Shown here piece after piece: positions 1,033 to 51,119 of a DNA stretch of 64,000 bases. The number at the start of each line of letters is the position of its first letter. Within the stretch, counting starts at the first letter, position 1. The notes beneath the pieces were generated by a model. That model saw only the letters and a program-made list of their open reading frames with translations. It had not been told where the DNA came from and did not search any database. Origin of the DNA: Escherichia phage vB_EcoM_JNE01; the sequence record OR670491; one strand, given 5' to 3'. Position numbers and translations under genes: made by a program.

Positions 1033-1060
1033 AAAAAAGGGAGCATAAGCTCCCTTTTCT
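1033..1060. terminator. bidirectional intrinsic terminator between convergent genes
   Basis: A-tract, GGGAGC-ATAA-GCTCCC hairpin, T-tract; sits between + gene ending 1026 and - gene ending 1064. Confidence 0.6.
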
Positions 1061-1063
1061 AAT

Positions 1064-1972
1064 TTAAGCTGCACTTACAACATAAGTACATTCAGCAGTA
1101 TGTGAACCATCAACTGTAGTTACGATAACACTAGCATTACCTTCACCAACTAATGTCACTAAACCTGCATTTGATACAGTAAGAACTTCATCGTTAGTAC
1201 TTGACCATACAACATCTTTGTTAGCTGCATTTACTGGGAGTACAGTTGCAATTAGTGTTTCGGTTCCACCAATTGGGCCATTACTTGATGTTTTACTTAA
1301 AGTAACACCAGTAACTGGGGTATTGACAACATATGCACAAGATGCTACTTTAGAACCATCAACTGTTGTTGCGTTGACTGTTGCTGAACCGTTACCAACT
1401 AGAGTTACTAATCCAGAATTAGACACGGTGAGTACTGCGTCATTAGTACTTGACCATACAACTGATTTATTTGTTGCATTTTCAGGTAATACAGTTGCAA
1501 CTAGTGTTTCAGAACCACCAATCTGACCATTACTAGAATTTTTATTCAATGAAATACTTTCGACTGGAACAACAACTGCGACATACTTAGTCGCGTACTT
1601 ACCAGTTTGTACTTCATTGCCATTAGTAAGAATTACTTTATGGGTGAAAAATTTATATGCAAAACCGAGTGCTTCCATAGTTGTTGCATCATAAACTTTA
1701 ACAGCGAATTCATCACGACCAAGTGCACTTGCAATTTCTTGGGCAGTGGCTGATAAATCAAGTAGGTTACGATTTTTATCTCGACCAACCATTGATACTC
1801 TTTGATAAACAGTAGTTGAATCACTATCAACTAAGTCAAACATGCGAGTACTACACTCGTTGATAATGTATAGTTCTTTATCAATTTCTTGAGCACTGTG
1901 ATCAGTTGCTGCAAAAACACAGATACCACCAACGTTGAATGGCAATTCACCAAATTTAGCTATAGGCTTCAT
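1064..1972 (-). CDS. Ig-like (Big_2-type) repeat protein, possible virion decoration or adhesin
   Basis: 302 aa; two tandem ~80 aa repeats (SxNxxIGGxETLxATVLPxNAxNKxVVWSSTNDxVLTVSNxGLVTLVGxG...TTVDGS) typical of bacterial Ig-like domains; only minus-strand gene in window. Confidence 0.6.
   Translation of the reverse strand: MKPIAKFGELPFNVGGICVFAATDHSAQEIDKELYIINECSTRMFDLVDSDSTTVYQRVSMVGRDKNRNLLDLSATAQEIASALGRDEFAVKVYDATTMEALGFAYKFFTHKVILTNGNEVQTGKYATKYVAVVVPVESISLNKNSSNGQIGGSETLVATVLPENATNKSVVWSSTNDAVLTVSNSGLVTLVGNGSATVNATTVDGSKVASCAYVVNTPVTGVTLSKTSSNGPIGGTETLIATVLPVNAANKDVVWSSTNDEVLTVSNAGLVTLVGEGNASVIVTTVDGSHTAECTYVVSAA
1075..1564 (-). repeat. internal tandem duplication (~245 bp unit) encoding the two Ig-like domains
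   Basis: Repeat visible at protein and DNA level (e.g. acttgaccatacaac...agttgcaa(c/t)tagtgtttc...ccaccaat in both copies). Confidence 0.6.
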
Positions 1973-4230: not shown

Positions 4231-4551
4231 ATGTCATATGAAATGTTCCTCGATGATATTCGTAACCCAGGATACTATTATCCAGGTCGTTCGATGGTTG
4301 TATGTCGTGATTTTAAAAGTGCATGTAAACAAGTTGAAAAATTTGGTATTCCATCATTTATTTCATTCGATCACGATTTGGGCGACATGAATTATGATGA
4401 AAAAACTGGGTATTCCTTCGCTAAATGGATTATTGATTATATGTTTGAGCACGAAATCAAAACACCTTTTGCATTTCATGTTCACAGTAGTAATCCAGTT
4501 GGTAAAGTGAATATCGAACATTACCTTAACAATGCATTCGAAAATTTATGA
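4231..4551 (+). CDS. hypothetical protein (conserved-looking FDHDLG / HVHSSNPVG motifs)
   Basis: 106 aa ORF immediately downstream of SIR2-Nudix pair; family not recognised. Confidence 0.45.
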   Translation: MSYEMFLDDIRNPGYYYPGRSMVVCRDFKSACKQVEKFGIPSFISFDHDLGDMNYDEKTGYSFAKWIIDYMFEHEIKTPFAFHVHSSNPVGKVNIEHYLNNAFENL

Positions 4552-4838
4552 AACAGTTAATTATAAGTGCATTAATAACAATAGCGTTATGTACGGTGTG
4601 TATTCTAATTTTGAATTATATTGACCAAAATTCAAAACAGAATGAACACTTTCAGTCCGCTGTAGTAATTTCATTAGGTCAGTGCAGTAAAAGTGCATGT
4701 TCTTTCACTTACAAAACCGAAGATGGTTATGTAATGTCTGGACTGTCAGAAAAACCAGTATCGATTGGTCAGATTGTTTACCAAAAGTGCTGGGAAACTA
4801 AAGTGCGAGGTCATGCTTGTAGTGATTTCGTGCAATAA
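4548..4838 (+). CDS. membrane/secreted small protein
   Basis: N-terminal hydrophobic segment MKQLIISALITIALCTVCILIL; ATGA overlap with upstream gene. Confidence 0.4.
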   Translation: MKQLIISALITIALCTVCILILNYIDQNSKQNEHFQSAVVISLGQCSKSACSFTYKTEDGYVMSGLSEKPVSIGQIVYQKCWETKVRGHACSDFVQ

Positions 4839-4888
4839 GTAATCTACCAATCGAGTACAAGGATGTACTCATAACTCAAGGATGTTTT

Positions 4889-6328
4889 ATGAAAAAATAT
4901 ACAATTGACACAAACGTACTACTATCTGATCCAAATGCTACCATTGCTTTTGATGGAGCAGCTATCATTCTACCGTTCACAGTACTTGAAGAATTGGATT
5001 CAATCAAAAGTCGTAATGTGGATGTTTCCCGTGATGCTCGTGTTGCAATCCGTAATATTGAAGCAATCCTTTCTGATGCATCACATGAAGAAATTAGTAG
5101 TACTGGTGTTAATATTGCTGATGTTCATACTAATATGAGTCCTGAAAGCAAATTGTTTGTTATTACAAGCGAAGAAGCTGAAGCACTAATTCGCACTGCT
5201 GGTAACGAAGAGAAAGTTCAAACTCTTCTAAAAAGCACAGTACCAGATGATAAAATCATTTTAGTAGCATTAGCAACTGATTCAGTACTGGTTACCCGTG
5301 ATATCAATATGCGTATCAAGGCTCTAAGCTACGGGGTGGAAGTTCAAGATTACCGTCATGATATCGTGATTGGTGATAGTGATTTGATTCACATTGGTCA
5401 ACATCACCTTGACCTACATTTCTGGGATGTGTATAGTAATCTGACTGATGTATCTATTCAGTCTGAACAAGTTGGTCGTCGTTTGTACCACTACATTCCA
5501 AAAAGCTTGATTGAACATATCATGCCACAAAATATTTGCATCGGTGATTACCTATATGATAATGCTGATGTTCTATTTGTGTACGAAGGCCAATCTGCAA
5601 TTGAAGAAGATGATGGTACTTTAACACCAGAAGATATTCTTGTATTCCAAGATATTGGACAATCTGTTGCTCTACGTGCTAAAGTGTGGGATATTAAGGC
5701 TAAGAATATTCAACAAGCACTAGCAATCAACAGTATCCTAGATCCTGATGTTCATCTAACAGTACTGTTGGGTTCCGCAGGTACTGGTAAAACGCTAATT
5801 ACCATTGCGACTGCACTTGAATTGGTTCTTGAGAAGAAGAAATATGACCGTATTATGTTCTCAAAACCACAAGATTCACAATGGGCCGAAATCGGTTTCT
5901 TACCAGGCACTGAAATGGAAAAAATGCTACCACATTGTGGCCCTGCATTGGATGCTTTGGAATTCTTACATAAAGATGATGCATCACCACAAGGTAGTAT
6001 TGAGGAAATAATCAAGCGTAATGTTATTCAGTTCAAAGCATTGAACTTCATTCGCGGTCGTTCATTTACCAACACTATTCTGGTTGTGGATGAGTTTCAG
6101 AACATCACACCTGCTCAGGCTAAGACAATCCTTACCCGTGCTGGCATGAACTGCAAAGTGATTATTCTTGGGAACTTGGCACAGATTGATAGTAAATTCA
6201 TTAGCCCAGTTAACAGCGGCTTAACATATGTTGTTGAGAAATTTAAAAACTGGGATGGTTGTCGAGTAATCGAACTCGAAGGTGTTGTTCGTTCACCACT
6301 GGCAGAATTTGCTGAAGAAAATATGTAA
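4889..6328 (+). CDS. phoH: PhoH-like ATPase with N-terminal PIN domain
   Basis: Walker A LLGSAGTGKTLI, Walker B ILVVDEFQN; N-terminal PIN-like MKKYTIDTNVLL; 479 aa. Confidence 0.8.
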   Translation: MKKYTIDTNVLLSDPNATIAFDGAAIILPFTVLEELDSIKSRNVDVSRDARVAIRNIEAILSDASHEEISSTGVNIADVHTNMSPESKLFVITSEEAEALIRTAGNEEKVQTLLKSTVPDDKIILVALATDSVLVTRDINMRIKALSYGVEVQDYRHDIVIGDSDLIHIGQHHLDLHFWDVYSNLTDVSIQSEQVGRRLYHYIPKSLIEHIMPQNICIGDYLYDNADVLFVYEGQSAIEEDDGTLTPEDILVFQDIGQSVALRAKVWDIKAKNIQQALAINSILDPDVHLTVLLGSAGTGKTLITIATALELVLEKKKYDRIMFSKPQDSQWAEIGFLPGTEMEKMLPHCGPALDALEFLHKDDASPQGSIEEIIKRNVIQFKALNFIRGRSFTNTILVVDEFQNITPAQAKTILTRAGMNCKVIILGNLAQIDSKFISPVNSGLTYVVEKFKNWDGCRVIELEGVVRSPLAEFAEENM

Positions 6329-6337
6329 TAATACGTC

Positions 6338-6363
6338 GGAGTGCTTTTTATAGCACTCCTTCT
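6338..6363 (+). terminator. intrinsic terminator after phoH
   Basis: GGAGTGCT-TTTTAT-AGCACTCC hairpin followed by TTCT. Confidence 0.5.
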
Positions 6364-6374
6364 AAGGAATTATA

Positions 6375-7655
6375 GTGATAATAAAACATCTGTATTATAT
6401 TGACTCAAATTTCAGAAAATACGATAAAGTTTCAAAACTTAATCCAAAATACATTACAGATGTTATTTTCCAAGAAAAATACAACATAGATCGAAACAGT
6501 ACTGAAATACTACAGGATGATATATCATCATATACACCAAACGTAACGGGTTTTTATTATATAAAATACCCAACTGGTGTTAGAAAAGTTTATGCTTTAA
6601 AATGTAATGAGTGCTCTAAAAACTCAGTATTACATGGCGAAGGAATATATCTGGTTCACTTGTCACACATCAAAAACGGAATCATTTCGTGTGGGTGTGC
6701 AAAACGCACAAACTGGACACCATATCAATATTACATAAAAATGATATCAGAATGTAAAAATCGTAATTGCATTTTTTTAGGTTACGATAAAAAACACTTA
6801 CGTTTATATTGTCTCGAACATGGTTACTGGAATACCACATCCAAAGCACACTTCTTTAATGGGAAAGGATGTAGTAAATGTGGGGACACCAATTCAAGAG
6901 TGTTGAGAACAAAAGACAGTTATTTTCATATATCTAAATTTAAAATCTTAAATGCGTATAATTATCGACGTTCCGACAAGATTGATAGTAGTGGTCGCTT
7001 GCGTTATTGGGAATATATGTGTAAGAAATGTTCACATGATGAGTATGTTAGGCTCGGTTTGTGTAATGGGATTTTTACATCATTTAATAGTGATTTAGTA
7101 AAGGGTAAGAAATCATGTCGTTGTTCAAGTAACTATAGATGGACAGAAAAACAGCGTGAATATCAAATCACCAAACTCCTAAAATCCAATTTTCCTCACA
7201 TTAGCTTTAAAGGTTGGGTAAATAGTTATAAAAATATCCATAGTAAGGCGATTTTAAATTGTAATATTCATAATAATTATACGCAAAAAGTAAACTACAT
7301 ACTTAATAATAATTGTGGTTGTCCACAATGTGCTGGGATGACACAGACAGAATGTTATATAAATGTAATATATGATGTGTTTCCAATTGCTATAAAATAT
7401 GGAATTTCAACACATACAAAAAACCGCGTTTGTAGTCAAAATAATAAATCACCATTTGACGTTATTAATCATGGAATTTGGGATTTTGAAAATCCATATT
7501 TATGCAAAATGGCAGAAAATGAATGCAAGCGAACGGTAAGTCGTGTTCTATCAGAACGCGAGCTACCTGACGGATTTACTGAAACCGCTGAAGTGAAATA
7601 TATTGATGATATAATTAAAATATATGAAAGCTGGGGTGGTATCAAACGAAAATAG
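6375..7655 (+). CDS. Cys-rich repeat protein (zinc-ribbon-like repeats), possibly mobile-element derived
   Basis: 426 aa; at least four repeats of CxxC...HGxW...CxxC; markedly AT-richer codon usage than neighbours; GTG start with RBS aagga. Confidence 0.45.
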   Translation: MIIKHLYYIDSNFRKYDKVSKLNPKYITDVIFQEKYNIDRNSTEILQDDISSYTPNVTGFYYIKYPTGVRKVYALKCNECSKNSVLHGEGIYLVHLSHIKNGIISCGCAKRTNWTPYQYYIKMISECKNRNCIFLGYDKKHLRLYCLEHGYWNTTSKAHFFNGKGCSKCGDTNSRVLRTKDSYFHISKFKILNAYNYRRSDKIDSSGRLRYWEYMCKKCSHDEYVRLGLCNGIFTSFNSDLVKGKKSCRCSSNYRWTEKQREYQITKLLKSNFPHISFKGWVNSYKNIHSKAILNCNIHNNYTQKVNYILNNNCGCPQCAGMTQTECYINVIYDVFPIAIKYGISTHTKNRVCSQNNKSPFDVINHGIWDFENPYLCKMAENECKRTVSRVLSERELPDGFTETAEVKYIDDIIKIYESWGGIKRK

Positions 7656-8065: not shown

Positions 8066-8800
8066 ATGAGCATAACTGATATATCCAATAAAGTTATTAA
8101 TGAATTGGTACAGAGAGGTTTTGCATCACCTATGATATATGGTTCGTGGTGCTACTATGAAAAGTACAAATTCGATGACAAGTATCCTAATGACATTGAT
8201 GTGATTAACATAGTACATGAAGAGTCGGAGGAAGGTGAATTTACTTTGGAGTTGAATTGTATTGACATTCCAGTTAATGTCGAATGCATGACTCTTCAGC
8301 ATTTTAGACAAGATTACAAGACTCCACAAATTAAGTACTTGGGTATAGGTCTTGCAGGTTCCAACAATTCATCAATCAATCACATCTTTTTATATCTAGG
8401 TGCAGTTCACAGTTACTATGCTGAACTTCCCAAAAATGTTGTTCGAACTATGTGCAGTTCATCATCGTCTAAGGCATTTAACAAAGGTGTTAAGAAACTG
8501 ACACTTGACGATGACTACGATAAAGATTTGGGTCTAAAAAACATCTGGCATAGCATTCATTTCATTTCTATAGTAGATTCATATTACAAGTCCTACGATG
8601 ATAGTCTTAATGTTGCAGAATATGCGTTGTATACTGAATATAACATGTTGCGTTGTATCCCGATGCGTGATATGATATATAAAATTTACGAGGAAACTGA
8701 AGGTTCTCTTCAGGATAAGGCTCAAGCAGTCATAGACTATGCAAAGCCTTTACGTAACAAATTAATGACAGAATTTCGTGCCTTATACCCAAAGGAGTGA
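8066..8800 (+). CDS. hypothetical protein (possible minimal nucleotidyltransferase fold)
   Basis: 244 aa; N-terminal YGSW...DIDVI loosely fits GS...DxD of Pol-beta-type NTases; RBS ggaaag. Confidence 0.45.
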   Translation: MSITDISNKVINELVQRGFASPMIYGSWCYYEKYKFDDKYPNDIDVINIVHEESEEGEFTLELNCIDIPVNVECMTLQHFRQDYKTPQIKYLGIGLAGSNNSSINHIFLYLGAVHSYYAELPKNVVRTMCSSSSSKAFNKGVKKLTLDDDYDKDLGLKNIWHSIHFISIVDSYYKSYDDSLNVAEYALYTEYNMLRCIPMRDMIYKIYEETEGSLQDKAQAVIDYAKPLRNKLMTEFRALYPKE

Positions 8801-32006: not shown

Positions 32007-32007
32007 T

Positions 32008-32037
32008 TTGGGAAATACTCCAGAAAAGTGCTATAAT
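32008..32037 (+). promoter_or_regulatory. sigma70-like promoter with extended -10 (TGcTATAAT)
   Basis: ttggga (weak -35) then tgctataat at 32029-32037; directly upstream of the non-coding island. Confidence 0.45.
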
Positions 32038-32043
32038 GTATAG

Positions 32044-32568
32044 TGAAAATGACAATGGGCGGTGTAAGCCGGATAACGAGAACCTAATTCTCTTGAAAAT
32101 GTAAAGGATAGATGAGCTTTACCATTGTAGCGATGAGCAAAAGAAACCCGTAAGAGTACTAGCAGCCATTCCAACAAGGCATAAGAACTACGAATCACGG
32201 CGAAGCGGCTCAATAAAGAACTCCGACAGCATAACAGAGAGTTCCTCGATAGACTTATAAGGATCGCACCTTACCAGATTTGCTAAGGGAGTTTAACTCA
32301 ATAAATGCGGTCGCAATTTTTCACAAGAAAGTTGCGTCCAAATTTTGAGTAAACAAGTACTACTTTGGTCGAATAGAGTTAGTACTTTGTGCTGGGGATG
32401 AAAAGACCAGTGACCGTTGCATATGACTGCGATAGAGAGAAACAGAGCAACCCGCTTTCGTTCTCTTAAATTAGACGAGAAAGATCCGTCTAAAATTTGA
32501 GAAATTCGCAATTCGACAATTCCGATGCCATCAGCGTCAAGAAGAGACTTAATTGTCTCTTTTTTATT
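32044..32568 (+). ncRNA. candidate structured non-coding RNA (~0.5 kb), family unknown
   Basis: No credible ORF on either strand; GC-richer than flanks; own promoter and terminator; multiple hairpins; two ~33 nt imperfect direct repeats (A(C/G)AAGAAAG(T/A)T(G/C)CGTC(C/T)AAA(A/T)TTTGAG(T/A)AA) about 150 nt apart. Confidence 0.35.
32541..32568 (+). terminator. intrinsic terminator
   Basis: AGAGAC-TTAATT-GTCTCT followed by TTTTT. Confidence 0.6.
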
Positions 32569-32572
32569 ACTT

Positions 32573-32594
32573 TCATTCCCCTGCGGGGGGATGA
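32573..32594 (+). other. stable 9 bp hairpin with UGCG tetraloop
   Basis: TCATTCCCC-TGCG-GGGGGATGA, nine pairs including one G-U; no U-tract after it. Confidence 0.5.
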
Positions 32595-32700
32595 AATGTC
32601 CTCAACAAATCCCGTCAAGCTTTTAAAGTACAATATAAAGGAATGAATGAGTTTACGAAGTAAACGATATGAATTCTTGAGTTACGAAGGAACGAAGTGA

Positions 32701-47382: not shown

Positions 47383-50046
47383 ATGGCAGGAGATCTACTC
47401 TCACCTGGCGTTTCCGTAACAGTAACTGATGAAAGTATGAGTACTGCGTCTGCTCCTGGTACAGTCCCACTATTCATTATCGCAACTGCGGAAGACAAAC
47501 TAGTACCTGGTAGCAGTGCAATCGCTGCTGGTACAACGAAAGCAAATGCTGGTAAACTACAGCTTTTAACATCACAAAAAAGTTCTTTGGACACCTATGG
47601 TACTCCAATTTTCCAAATGAGCAATGGTTCAGTTGTTCAAGGTGACGAACTTAACGAATATGGCCTACATGCAGTGTATTCCTATCTTGGAATTACTAAC
47701 CGTGCATACGTAGTGCGTGCTGACATTGACTTAGCTCAACTAGCACCATCTGCAACTGCACCAACTGGCCCAGTATCTAATGGCACTCTATGGCTTGATG
47801 TTGCTCAATCACAAGTTGAAGCATATGTAGCACGTAAAGACAGCCCAAGCAGTTTCTATGATTGGGAACTAAAAACCGTAACTATCGTATCTTCTGAAGA
47901 AGTTGCTGACGTTAGTACTATCGGTATGAATGTAAATGATCTAGTACTACGCTATAAGCCAAGTAACGGTCAGATGCTAATGTACAAATTTACTGCTTCT
48001 GGTTTGGTACAGATGGAAACTTATCTATCACCAATCAATAAAGTTCCAGTAGGCAGTACTATTGAACAAGGCAATATCTGGATTCGTGATGGCTATACTC
48101 AAAATGGTTCTAACTATTTTGGTACTCGCTTTGTAATTAAACGTTACGCTTCCCTAACTCAAGTTTGGAATACCGTTGCAGCTTATACTGGTAACTCTTT
48201 CCAAGAAATCGAAGCTAAAAGCGGTGCTCTAAGTAGTGCATTTATCGCAGTTCGTTTTGACGATGATAGTAAGAGTTTCTCTTTCTACATTCAAAGTGCT
48301 AAACTTTCTGTAATTAGTGCACCAGCAATGCCACTAGGCGAAACTGTTATTGAACAGGCTGGTGAAGACAGCTATTTAACTTTCCAATTCCTAAATCAAA
48401 CTGTTAAAGTACTAGCAGTACCGCAAGGTAATGTTATTAATACTCAAACAATCGTTGATAACGTGAATAAAAGTGCTGATCTAATTAACAATGGCTTTAA
48501 ATTTAAACGTGAATCTAATGGTGGTTTCGTAGTTACTAACGTTAAAGGTTATAGTTTCAAAATTACCCAAAGTGGTGATGATATTTTTGATGCAACTGAA
48601 ATCAAAAAACTAACTGTTGACAGTAACAACTACTCTCTAATCAACGTTAACAACTTCCGTGTTGATTCTTCTGTGCCACGCAGTACTGCTAAAGAAGGTA
48701 CTCTATGGTATGATTTTGGTAACTCTGACAACCTAACCGTTACTATGTACATCGCTGATGTAGCTAATGACGAATGGGACGTAGTTCAAGAAGACAACAA
48801 ATACGTTCAACTAGACGAACCTGCTGCTGACCGTTTGATTTGGGTATCTCCTAAATCTCAAGGTATCGATGGTTATGACTTCTATCGTAACGTAAATGGT
48901 GAGTGGGTTAAACTAGACCAAACTGACCAAAGTACTCTAAACGGTATGATCTTTGAAGATTTCAACTTCCCTGAACAAGTACCTGCTGCTGCTCTATATC
49001 AGAATGGTATGCTCGCAATCGACCTAGGCAATACCGAAGGTGTTGTTAAGAAAATGGTTAATGGTCAATGGCAAGTAGTTAGTGGTGTTGGTATTGATGG
49101 TAATGGTCTATTTGGTCGTGCTGCACAACGTCAACTAATCGTTGAAGCACTAGCTGCTGTTGTAGTTGGTAACGATGATATCCGTTCCGAATTTATCGAC
49201 TTTAACCTAATCTGTGTTCCTGGTTATGTTGAACTACTAGATGAGTGTGTTACTCTAAACACTGACCGTAAAGAAACTGCTTTCATCGTAACTGATGTTC
49301 CAGCACGTTTGAACCCAACTGGTAACGGTAGTGAAGTTCAAGAATGGGCTACTAACGCAAACAATGCACCAAGCAACGGTTCTGTAGGTCGTACTACTGC
49401 TTATGATTATGCTGCTCAGTATATGGGCTGGGGTCTAAGTACTAACGTTGATGGTGAAGAAGTTGCAGTTCCTGGTAGTACTATTGCAATGCGTACCTAT
49501 GCGTACAGTGATAGTGTTAGCTACGTTTGGTATCCACCTGCTGGTACTACTCGTGGTGTGGTAACTAACGCTTCATCTATTGGCTTTATTAACGACGAAG
49601 GTGAATATCAACCAGTTGTTTATAACCAAGGCCAACGTGATGTAATGTATACCAACAACATCAACCCAATTGCAATGCGTCCTAACCGTGGTTTGCTAGT
49701 TTATGGAGATAAAACTCTATCTGCTAACCAAACTTCAGCACTAAGCCGTGTTAACGTTGCTCGTTTAGTTGTTTATATTCGTCGTCAACTAGAAATCATT
49801 TCCGAGCCATTCCTATTCCGTTTGAATACCCCAAGTACTCGTCAGGAATTCGCTGGTGTAGTGAATAGTTTCCTAGCAGAAATCGTTCAACAACAAGGTC
49901 TATATAACTTCGCAGTAGTTTGTGACGAAAGTAACAACACTTCCGAGCGTATTGACCGTAACGAACTCTGGATGGATATCGCAATTCAACCAACTAAGAG
50001 TATCAACTTCATTTACGTACCAATTCGTATTGAAAAAACTCAATAA
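47383..50046 (+). CDS. contractile tail sheath protein
   Basis: 887 aa; C-terminal YGDKT...RVNVARLVVY...VVCDESNNTSERIDRNEL...IQPTKSINFIY matches conserved C-terminal domain of T4 gp18-type sheath; RBS ggagg. Confidence 0.9.
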   Translation: MAGDLLSPGVSVTVTDESMSTASAPGTVPLFIIATAEDKLVPGSSAIAAGTTKANAGKLQLLTSQKSSLDTYGTPIFQMSNGSVVQGDELNEYGLHAVYSYLGITNRAYVVRADIDLAQLAPSATAPTGPVSNGTLWLDVAQSQVEAYVARKDSPSSFYDWELKTVTIVSSEEVADVSTIGMNVNDLVLRYKPSNGQMLMYKFTASGLVQMETYLSPINKVPVGSTIEQGNIWIRDGYTQNGSNYFGTRFVIKRYASLTQVWNTVAAYTGNSFQEIEAKSGALSSAFIAVRFDDDSKSFSFYIQSAKLSVISAPAMPLGETVIEQAGEDSYLTFQFLNQTVKVLAVPQGNVINTQTIVDNVNKSADLINNGFKFKRESNGGFVVTNVKGYSFKITQSGDDIFDATEIKKLTVDSNNYSLINVNNFRVDSSVPRSTAKEGTLWYDFGNSDNLTVTMYIADVANDEWDVVQEDNKYVQLDEPAADRLIWVSPKSQGIDGYDFYRNVNGEWVKLDQTDQSTLNGMIFEDFNFPEQVPAAALYQNGMLAIDLGNTEGVVKKMVNGQWQVVSGVGIDGNGLFGRAAQRQLIVEALAAVVVGNDDIRSEFIDFNLICVPGYVELLDECVTLNTDRKETAFIVTDVPARLNPTGNGSEVQEWATNANNAPSNGSVGRTTAYDYAAQYMGWGLSTNVDGEEVAVPGSTIAMRTYAYSDSVSYVWYPPAGTTRGVVTNASSIGFINDEGEYQPVVYNQGQRDVMYTNNINPIAMRPNRGLLVYGDKTLSANQTSALSRVNVARLVVYIRRQLEIISEPFLFRLNTPSTRQEFAGVVNSFLAEIVQQQGLYNFAVVCDESNNTSERIDRNELWMDIAIQPTKSINFIYVPIRIEKTQ

Positions 50047-50083: not shown

Positions 50084-50432
50084 TTGTAAAAATTAAATAC
50101 AATACAATATTATTATATGGGTAATTATATGGAAGAAATATTAAAGTCGATATTACAAGAACTTAGCTCCCATGTATCAACTCAAGATGAATCTCTTGAT
50201 TTACTTTATGCAGTACTGGATATAATCAAAGACTGTCGGTATTATTAAAAGTTTCATTGTGTATAAAAATGGGAAATGGTCGAATGGCATCAGGTACTTA
50301 GATAGTACTGGAGAAACAAAATATCTTTATTGCATTAATATTAATTGGTTTCCAGTTGAAGGTTTCAGTCATTAATATTAAGTTGTTTAGATAAATAATA
50401 TAAAGATGTCATTCCATGAAAGGAGAATTTCA

Positions 50433-51119
50433 ATGGCTACAATGCTTGATCGATATGGTGTTCCGCTCGCTGGCGGTGGTCGTATCTCTATGAAACAACC
50501 AAAAGCAAAATACAAATTCCGTGTTATTTTCTTTGGTTTCGGTGCTAATGATGACGGTAATATGATTACACTTGATACTAACACTGTTGGTGCGGTATCA
50601 GTATCACATGAAAACGTAACTGTTCATAGCTATAACAGTTCTGCACACTACAAAGGCAAATATACTTGGGATAGTATCGAAGTTGCATTCCGTGATTCAG
50701 TAGGTAACGCTTCTTCAAAAGCTCTTTACAACCAAATGCGTAAAGAATTTAACTACTACAGTCAAGAATCTCGTATGACTGATTCACAATTCAAATTTGA
50801 AATGTGGATTCAGGAACTTGATGGTTCTAACAGTGAAAATGCTACTAACCTATACGAAGGTACACTAAGTACTTGGGTATGTCAGGGTTGCTTTATTGAA
50901 TCCAGTAACTTTGGCGACTGGGATTATTCATCCAGTGAAGCTCAAGTTATCACCATGACTGTTCAACCTGATGGTTGTGCTAAATTGGGTCCAAATGGCG
51001 AAGCGTTCGGTGATGAAGTTAGTGCGTTCGGTAATCCGTCCACCTCTACCTCTATCAGCGGTGCACAAACCAACATTAGTAGTACTACTCTTCCAGATAG
51101 TAACTTCTACGAAAACTAA
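50433..51119 (+). CDS. tail tube protein
   Basis: Directly downstream of sheath; N-terminal MATMLDRYGVPLAGGGR...KAKYKFRVIFF typical of myovirus tube N-termini; start refined to ATG 50433 (RBS aaaggag). Confidence 0.7.
   Translation: MATMLDRYGVPLAGGGRISMKQPKAKYKFRVIFFGFGANDDGNMITLDTNTVGAVSVSHENVTVHSYNSSAHYKGKYTWDSIEVAFRDSVGNASSKALYNQMRKEFNYYSQESRMTDSQFKFEMWIQELDGSNSENATNLYEGTLSTWVCQGCFIESSNFGDWDYSSSEAQVITMTVQPDGCAKLGPNGEAFGDEVSAFGNPSTSTSISGAQTNISSTTLPDSNFYEN

Follow-up and report, generated by a model that had tools for sequence, protein, structure and literature searches.

A lone gene that runs against its neighbours raises the question of whether it is a foreign passenger or a regular part of the genome that carries it. 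Such a gene lies near the left end of the 64,000-nucleotide stretch of Escherichia phage vB_EcoM_JNE01 analysed here (sequence record OR670491; the whole stretch is called the window), which is a piece of a Rak2-like (Asteriusvirus-type) jumbo coliphage genome. It encodes a protein with immunoglobulin-like (Ig-like) domains, and both are referred to below as the Ig gene and the Ig protein. The explanation favoured, with a probability of about 0.6, is that the gene is a late cassette for a non-essential, decoration-type virion protein, in which an N-terminal anchor would carry Ig-like domains for display.

The first-pass annotation, made from the letters of the sequence, had described the gene as the only inverted one in a plus-strand window, and a survey of open reading frames (ORFs) on both strands bears this out. 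The Ig gene is the sole credible minus-strand gene, and the only minus-strand ORF of at least 100 amino acids (aa) outside longer plus-strand ORFs; the other uncovered minus-strand ORFs of at least 60 aa are just two (60 and 72 aa), both within the non-coding stretch 32007–32700. Its G+C content at the three codon positions (0.51/0.44/0.17) is as expected of a real gene, and its overall value is 37.2%, as against 36.5% for the window. The protein is 97% identical to Turkey5 XMR01705, and the identical protein sequence occurs on 14 public contigs with its neighbours unchanged. The first 6 kb of the window shows 95.6% identity to Escherichia phage Turkey5 (351 kb) and 77–86% identity, over partial length, to PBECO4, 121Q, phAPEC6 and related phages. 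No paralogue of the Ig protein was found within the window by tblastn, either with the whole protein or with its N-terminal domain (N-domain) alone.

The proposal that the protein carries tandem Big_2-type domains created by internal duplication is confirmed by Pfam and by comparison of the repeats. The Big_2 profile (PF02368) scores 96.5 bits against a gathering cut-off of 22.8, in two stretches (aa 136–212 and about 218–297), and the region is modelled as all-beta, of the beta-sandwich type. The direct repeat has a period of 249 nucleotides (nt), so that the unit is 249 bp long and not about 245 bp as first given; 205 nt align ungapped at 75%, and 177 of the 249 nt are identical across whole units. 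The two units are 71–75% identical in DNA and 70% in protein, and neither exceeds 57% identity to any Big_2 unit of relatives. Because the units of the window are most alike each other, the duplication is lineage-specific and independent of that in GAP32.

Differences from Turkey5 are concentrated in the distal Ig domain, where 24 of the 29 nucleotide differences fall in codons 236–273 (a 114-nt patch at 1154–1267). Divergence from Turkey5 amounts to 1 of 405 nt in the N-domain, 4.4% in the surrounding 6 kb and 9.5% in the distal Ig domain. Positive selection on this domain was considered and rejected, since the clustering of 15 synonymous and 8 non-synonymous codon changes across 38 codons argues for recombination; the outermost domain seems to have acquired this segment in that way.

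Structure prediction of the N-terminal 130 residues or so, as the first-pass annotation had proposed, gave a confident beta-rich fold with one helix and without a known structural counterpart. In the AlphaFold2 model of the N-domain, the predicted local distance difference test (pLDDT) is about 90 over aa 15–125, and no solved structure (PDB chain) is similar to it in sequence or fold. The full-length model has a pLDDT of 87.9 and a predicted template modelling score of 0.52, with an all-beta Ig region above 90 in both units, which fits three independently folded beads on a string. Residues 1–9 are predicted to be disordered, yet M1, K2, P3, A5 and P11 are invariant across the family, which suggests that the N-terminus may serve as an interaction peptide.

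The N-domain defines a family that is confined among known phages to one group. Searched alone, the N-terminal ~135 aa retrieved 59 phage records, all of them from Rak2-like jumbo phages that infect enterobacteria or Xanthomonas. When 1.84 billion representatives were searched exhaustively with a profile, only 98 clusters came up, in nearly all of which the domain starts at residue 1. The Ig protein belongs to this family through a homologous domain of ~120 aa at its extreme N-terminus, which is 34–56% identical to that of orthologues. In tblastn comparisons the window N-domain is 56% identical to the Salmonella phage Munch/SE_PL type, compared with 39.8% to PBECO4 gp098. PHROG matches of the Ig protein are to families 215, 33171 and 10468, annotated as 'virion structural protein (with Ig domain)' (phrog_33171, E 4.3e-18 over aa 1–118; phrog_10468, E 4.7e-14).

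The part behind the N-domain varies freely. No Big_2 domain is present in PBECO4 gp098, phAPEC6 gp347 and A4_463, one in Munch_133 and CBB_112, two in the window protein, Turkey5, GAP32_111 and BF_105, and seven in A4_464, and the N-domain is always extreme N-terminal, whatever the number of Ig domains that follow. The members of the N-domain family range from 102 to 1859 aa, and in long metagenomic members the N-domain is followed by arrays of Big_2, Invasin_D3/Big_1 or HYDIN/ASH-type Ig-like domains. A paralogue of ~385 aa, which is universally conserved, joins this N-domain to a C-terminal part of unrelated sequence; the second N-domain copy lies outside the window (Turkey5 297915–299072). 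The constant N-terminal position, combined with fusions to zero, one, two or seven Ig domains, suggests a protein of the anchor-plus-display kind, analogous to T5 pb10 or T4 Hoc.

Two side observations concern the reach of this family. Among the metagenomic members (P0037–P0129), C-terminal arrays occur in proteins of 600–1859 aa, and a frequent class of ~600–650 aa gave no Pfam match in the single example scanned (P0060). In phage A4, four inverted genes form an islet at the same locus (4394–7601), among them the 722-aa A4_464 with its N-domain and seven Big_2 domains and the separate N-domain-only A4_463. Because of this four-gene islet, the locus is a hotspot for expansion of the N-domain family.

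Orthologues of the Ig protein have been detected in virions. The syntenic, inverted and N-domain-only orthologue phAPEC6 gp347 (14.1 kDa) was identified by 8 unique peptides with 75.2% coverage, the highest in the table, in which the major capsid protein reaches 74.9% (PMC7247149 Table 1). Coverage of 75% for a 14-kDa protein argues for abundance. The 385-aa paralogue of the same phage, gp077, was found with 10 peptides and 37.8% coverage (PMC7247149), and CBB_112, which has the N-domain and one Big_2 domain, with 4 peptides and 24.3% coverage (PMC5259590 Table 4). By homology with these proteins, the Ig protein is very probably a virion protein. The T=28 capsids of phAPEC6 and 121Q bear a decoration layer with as many copies as the major capsid protein, as well as a fibre-anchoring density at the hexamer centres, and neither has been assigned to a gene (PMC7247149; Hua et al. 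2017, PMC5646251). No newer Asteriusvirus structure came up in a literature search. A paper on a 'Hoc-like' protein of PMBT63 was set aside as irrelevant here, as it concerns a T4-like phage.

The same kind of protein could also be attached to the tail, on the sheath surface, among the collar and distal-ring decorations, or at the base of the 'hairy' whiskers of phAPEC6, CBB and 121Q. In phAPEC6, both the collar and the distal end of the tail bear unassigned decoration proteins, and fibres are present at three rings, the authors of the CBB study could not assign the whisker genes (PMC5259590), database names of orthologues say 'tail', and the evidence gathered fits head and tail alike. However, these names trace to Big_2 similarity with siphophage tail proteins, with PHROG matches over aa 130–300 only. 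The very high mass spectrometry (MS) coverage of the 14-kDa orthologue better fits a high-copy capsid layer, and the single Ig domain of CBB_112 was judged too short for the 119-nm whiskers of CBB (PMC5259590). A tail site is considered rather unlikely on this balance.

A stronger form of the tail assignment is found in the RefSeq and GenBank records, where orthologues (GAP32_111, CBB_112, K64-1 and XbC2) are named major tail protein, that is, the tube; PHROG 'major tail protein' families match the Ig protein as well. These matches span the Big_2 region only, and the label stems from Big_2 similarity of the lambda gpV/Herelleviridae type. The C-terminal Big_2 domain of lambda gpV and its counterparts in Herelleviridae (such as EfV12-phi1 gp116) are ~39% identical to the Big_2 units of the window, and the similarity is confined to them. 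Herelleviridae matches named 'structural protein with Ig domain' extend over aa 42–302, but their alignment of aa 42–135 is onto another Big_2 unit and was rejected as N-domain homology. The window has its own sheath gene (47383–50046; phrog_10581, E = 0) and tube gene (50406–51119; phrog_4542, E 5.8e-84). Furthermore, the N-domain model has no tube-fold match, the PBECO4 gp098 orthologue is only 125 aa long, and phages of the Turkey3 group lack the gene. Identity with the tail tube is effectively refuted and retains almost no credence. The name 'major tail protein' given to orthologues is an error of transitive annotation; the real sheath and tube genes lie in the same window.

Comparison with known systems places the Ig protein among decoration proteins by analogy. 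T5 pb10, a non-essential protein, binds the particle through its N-terminal domain and has an Ig-like domain at its C-terminus. The Ig protein appears to share this domain order and logic, but it has two Ig domains instead of one, and its N-domain resembles no PDB chain, so neither a homologous nor an isostructural counterpart of the capsid-binding domain of pb10 was found. In T4 Hoc, the Ig-like domains are N-terminal and of a different class, and the capsid-binding domain is C-terminal. Like Hoc, the Ig protein would be a dispensable, predicted late protein displaying Ig-like domains from the virion surface; unlike Hoc, it has the reverse domain order and another Ig class, and no Hoc family is among its PHROG or Pfam matches. 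The Hoc literature ties Ig-like domains to mucus or glycan adherence, and it is a reasonable guess that the Ig domains of the window protein act in adhesion or at a surface. The Ig protein may best be regarded as functionally analogous to T5 pb10 and T4 Hoc, not as their homologue.

True homologues are the Rak2-like orthologues, which are classed as 'virion structural protein (with Ig domain)' (phAPEC6 gp347, PBECO4 gp098 and 121Q gp471 in phrog_33171; CBB_112, GAP32_111 and Munch_133 of the phrog_215 type). Synteny and hairpins were checked in PBECO4 gp098, phAPEC6 gp347, Munch_133, GAP32_111, CBB_112, BF_105, A4_463/464 and one metagenomic contig. In the relatives examined that have the gene, it stands alone and inverted beside a block of dCMP-deaminase, small-membrane-protein and Clp-protease genes, most often with a bidirectional terminator. 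The Ig gene resembles them in its N-domain and setting, with a predicted convergent terminator and a late-type motif of its own, and differs in that its two Big_2 domains come from its own recent duplication and its site is shifted by one to two genes.

Expression signals indicate how such a gene could be accommodated. The 108-nt region upstream of it (1973–2080) contains two divergent promoter-type signals, the T4-type late-promoter motif TATAAATA facing the Ig gene and a sigma-70-like promoter facing the HslV-like gene; TGTCAA, the reverse complement of TTGACA, is found at the equivalent place upstream of orthologues. In the 64 kb, TATAAATA occurs once against 7.8 copies expected, and this sole copy is that of the Ig gene. 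Its core, ATAAATA, is depleted in the window (9 copies seen, 28.5 ± 5.7 expected) and is the rarest of the 21 7-mers of the same composition (A5T2). On the plus strand, six of seven copies lie 31–113 nt before an ORF start, compared with 25% for 7-mers of the same composition; the ORFs behind them include the tail sheath (47383), a tail-fibre gene (26002), a virion structural gene (54146) and an 899-aa ORF (16157). The seventh copy is 8 nt ahead of the point where the tail tube ORF is called to begin. The same motif is present upstream of GAP32_111, CBB_112, BF_105, A4_464 and the 385-aa paralogues, which are likewise lone inverted genes. ATAAATA has been described as the putative late promoter of structural genes in CBB and GAP32 (PMC5259590). 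The Ig gene would thus be a late gene lying antisense within an early/middle operon.

The other end of the unit is marked by a hairpin in the 37 nt that separate the convergent stop codons (1026 and 1064). The view that it insulates the gene as a bidirectional terminator is supported by folding energies (−15.9 kcal/mol on the plus strand, z −3.4; −19.3 on the minus strand, z −5.1), by U-tracts on either strand (tails UUUUCU and UUUUUU) and by equivalents in relatives. Its 6-bp GC core is extendable to 10–13 bp, and with a stem-loop and U-tract per strand the hairpin has the features of a predicted bidirectional intrinsic (rho-independent) terminator. A simple terminator scanner did not list it, and folding was used instead. 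Hairpins of the same A-tract/GC-stem/T-tract design, with differing stems, follow seven of the eight orthologues and paralogues examined; the stems covary (GGAGCC/GGCTCC, GGCACTC/GAGTGCC and GCCACTAC/GTAGTGGC).

The inverted orientation and the terminator had led the first-pass annotation to propose a moron-like insertion, and as far as the site is concerned this part of the proposal stands. Relative to Turkey3 and A4, a unit of ~1.05 kb is inserted between the small membrane-protein gene (766–1026) and the HslV-like gene; the same two flanking genes overlap in Turkey3, while in A4 a gap of 11 nt that contains no gene separates them. It is an autonomous unit placed between genes that are adjacent in relatives, with a predicted promoter and terminator of its own. 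Presence or absence in related phages, which had been suggested as a check, gave a mixed picture: the family is widespread in Rak2-like phages, but the gene is not conserved in all, since the Turkey3 group lacks it and keeps just the 385-aa paralogue. The allele is also nearer to Salmonella-phage versions than to that of the coliphage PBECO4.

These observations would fit a horizontally acquired, autonomously expressed non-structural gene, such as an adhesin or a host-modulating factor. What does not fit is the nature of the cargo: the family is confined to, and widespread in, Rak2-like jumbo phages, orthologues are found in virions, the putative promoter is of the late structural type and the composition is typical of the genome, so that the non-structural cargo, foreign composition and expression outside the lytic late programme of a moron are not supported. 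Neither an integrase nor a repressor was seen among the examined genes of the window and of annotated relatives, and the phages are taken as virulent, so there would be no prophage state for a moron to act in. A foreign moron is considered highly improbable, and the Ig gene is most likely an ordinary kind of phage decoration gene. Judging from these comparisons, the unit seems to behave as a mobile, dispensable, exchangeable late cassette whose cargo is a structural gene.

The inverted gene of most relatives lies ~1 kb upstream, adjoining the other small protein by the dCMP deaminase, and the Ig gene of the window is one to two genes away from this ancestral site. Just beyond the left end of the window, the ancestral site of Turkey5 (~8160–8187) and Turkey3 (5919–5950) has an orphan bidirectional terminator (AAAAAAGGAGCCTTATGGCTCCTTTTT); here, between the small protein on the dCMP-deaminase side and the Clp-like gene, there are promoter-like boxes and no gene. 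The orphan terminator is a footprint of gene loss or relocation. A mosaic boundary was also observed, with positions 1–2932 of the window only 64–68% identical to other Asteriusviruses, compared with 83–86% from ~2933 onward. Before this boundary the Clp-like, small membrane-protein and HslV-like genes are diverged, and the Ig gene has no DNA-level match in other Asteriusviruses.

Several points weigh against the anchor-plus-display explanation. The virion evidence comes from orthologues and not from the window protein itself, and MS coverage is not stoichiometry. The same virion tables list PhoH-like, RecA-like and thymidylate synthase proteins, which are non-structural, and detection by MS is for this reason a weak argument when taken alone. 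The N-domain model matched no known capsid-binding or tail-binding fold, so that its anchoring role is inferred from architecture. PBECO4-type orthologues have no Ig domains, and therefore the conserved function of the family cannot be Ig-mediated adhesion. In the cryo-EM study of phiKp24, a Klebsiella jumbo phage whose description cites RaK2 and which may or may not carry a family member, the capsid is made of the major capsid protein alone, with no separate decoration protein. Finally, the late promoter is putative, being assigned by its motif, and exact ATAAATA is missing upstream of the PBECO4 gp098/phAPEC6 and Munch_133 orthologues. As a separate observation on the virion tables, the window encodes a PhoH-like/PIN ATPase (4889–6328, plus strand) whose orthologue phAPEC6 gp341c is in the virion proteome with 30.9% coverage (PMC7247149).

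The existence of N-domain-only orthologues that are abundant in virions also agrees with a purely structural role, in which the N-domain cements the capsid or tail, while the evolutionarily labile Ig domains merely ride along and take no part in adhesion. Conservation is much stronger in the N-domain than in the Ig domains, whose copy number varies freely. On the other hand, the same anchor has repeatedly and independently gained and expanded Ig arrays belonging to different Pfam classes, which suggests selected display, and the gene is dispensable in Turkey3-type phages. Cement alone is regarded as improbable. A bolder extension of the anchor-plus-display explanation is held tentatively: the N-domain would be an uncharacterised docking fold, a universal plug for swap-in display, and would fit the unassigned density of phAPEC6 and 121Q, with the window gene as a freshly duplicated, relocated two-Ig cassette. 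Such a plug could carry no cargo, one to seven Big_2 domains, Ig domains of other classes or a module of 260 aa, and this too is offered with reserve. The density concerned might conceivably be the decoration layer, with copies equal to the major capsid protein, or the fibre anchor at the hexamer centres.

Under the favoured anchor-plus-display explanation, the gene would be transcribed late from its own TATAAATA promoter, antisense to early/middle plus-strand genes. The convergent bidirectional terminator would halt both the late transcript and the upstream plus-strand transcript, preventing transcriptional collision, and the divergent sigma-70-like promoter would restart the plus-strand operon into the HslV-like gene. 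The N-terminal domain of ~120–135 aa would dock the protein on the particle surface, with the capsid as the more likely site and the tail as a possible one. The two Big_2 domains would project outward as a flexible arm, estimated at ~8 nm, and would probably bind surface glycans of cell envelope, capsule or mucus weakly and reversibly, as proposed for T4 Hoc and T5 pb10. The features concerned are collected in Table 1.

Table 1. Positions of the Ig gene, its domains, its predicted control signals and the late-type motif in the window.
Feature	Position	Strand	Remarks
Coding sequence of the Ig gene	1064–1972	minus	302 aa, ATG start; stop codon 1064–1066
Ribosome-binding site AGGAGA	1978–1983	minus	5 nt before the ATG of the Ig gene; read from the sequence
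TATAAATA, putative T4-type late-promoter motif	2004–2011	minus	31 nt before the ATG of the Ig gene
Sigma-70-like promoter TTGACA-17-TACAAT	2021–2049	plus	11/12 consensus; fronts the HslV-like gene 2081–2683
Bidirectional intrinsic-terminator-like hairpin	1033–1060	both	AAAAAA-GGGAGC-ATAA-GCTCCC-TTTTCT, between convergent stops
N-terminal domain, aa 1–135	1568–1972	minus	beta-rich, restricted to the Rak2-like family; proposed module for virion docking
Big_2 Ig-like domain 1, aa 136–218	1319–1567	minus	Pfam; all-beta model
Big_2 Ig-like domain 2, aa 219–302	1067–1318	minus	tandem duplicate of domain 1
ATAAATA copies	7946, 16117, 25941, 47326, 50391, 54108, 54633	plus	motif count
ATAAATA copies	2004, 7497	minus	motif count

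A side finding came from the non-coding stretch mentioned above. The 694 nt at 32007–32700 (plus strand) are free of ORFs and unannotated in Turkey5, and are conserved at 60–98% nucleotide identity in 71 Rak2-like jumbo phage records, at one to five places per genome (typically three or four). Matches occur in phages of Escherichia, Klebsiella, Erwinia, Yersinia, Serratia, Xanthomonas and other genera. Long blocks are invariant when seven copies are aligned, and RNAalifold predicts 100 pairs, of which 27 show compensatory double changes; the single-sequence fold has a z of −3.2. A TATAAT-like box lies near 32031–32040, and a terminator-like hairpin with a T-run near 32545–32570. The stretch had no Rfam 15 match, even at E up to 1, and Rfam and tRNA scans of the whole window were negative. 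It looks like a candidate for an undescribed family of structured non-coding RNA of ~530 nt, which may merit more attention than the Ig gene.

Nothing in this analysis overturns current understanding. The ATAAATA copies can be used to chart late transcription units across the window, and the predicted late gene, insulated within an early operon, would illustrate cleanly the way in which these large genomes interleave temporal classes. If the favoured explanation is true, the widespread 'major tail protein' and 'invasin/intimin-like' annotations of the family would need correcting, and the unassigned decoration density on Asteriusvirus capsids would gain a concrete candidate. The family would then provide a compact N-terminal anchor that tolerates diverse C-terminal cargo, of interest for jumbo-phage display and for tuning the retention of phages on mucosal or capsule surfaces.

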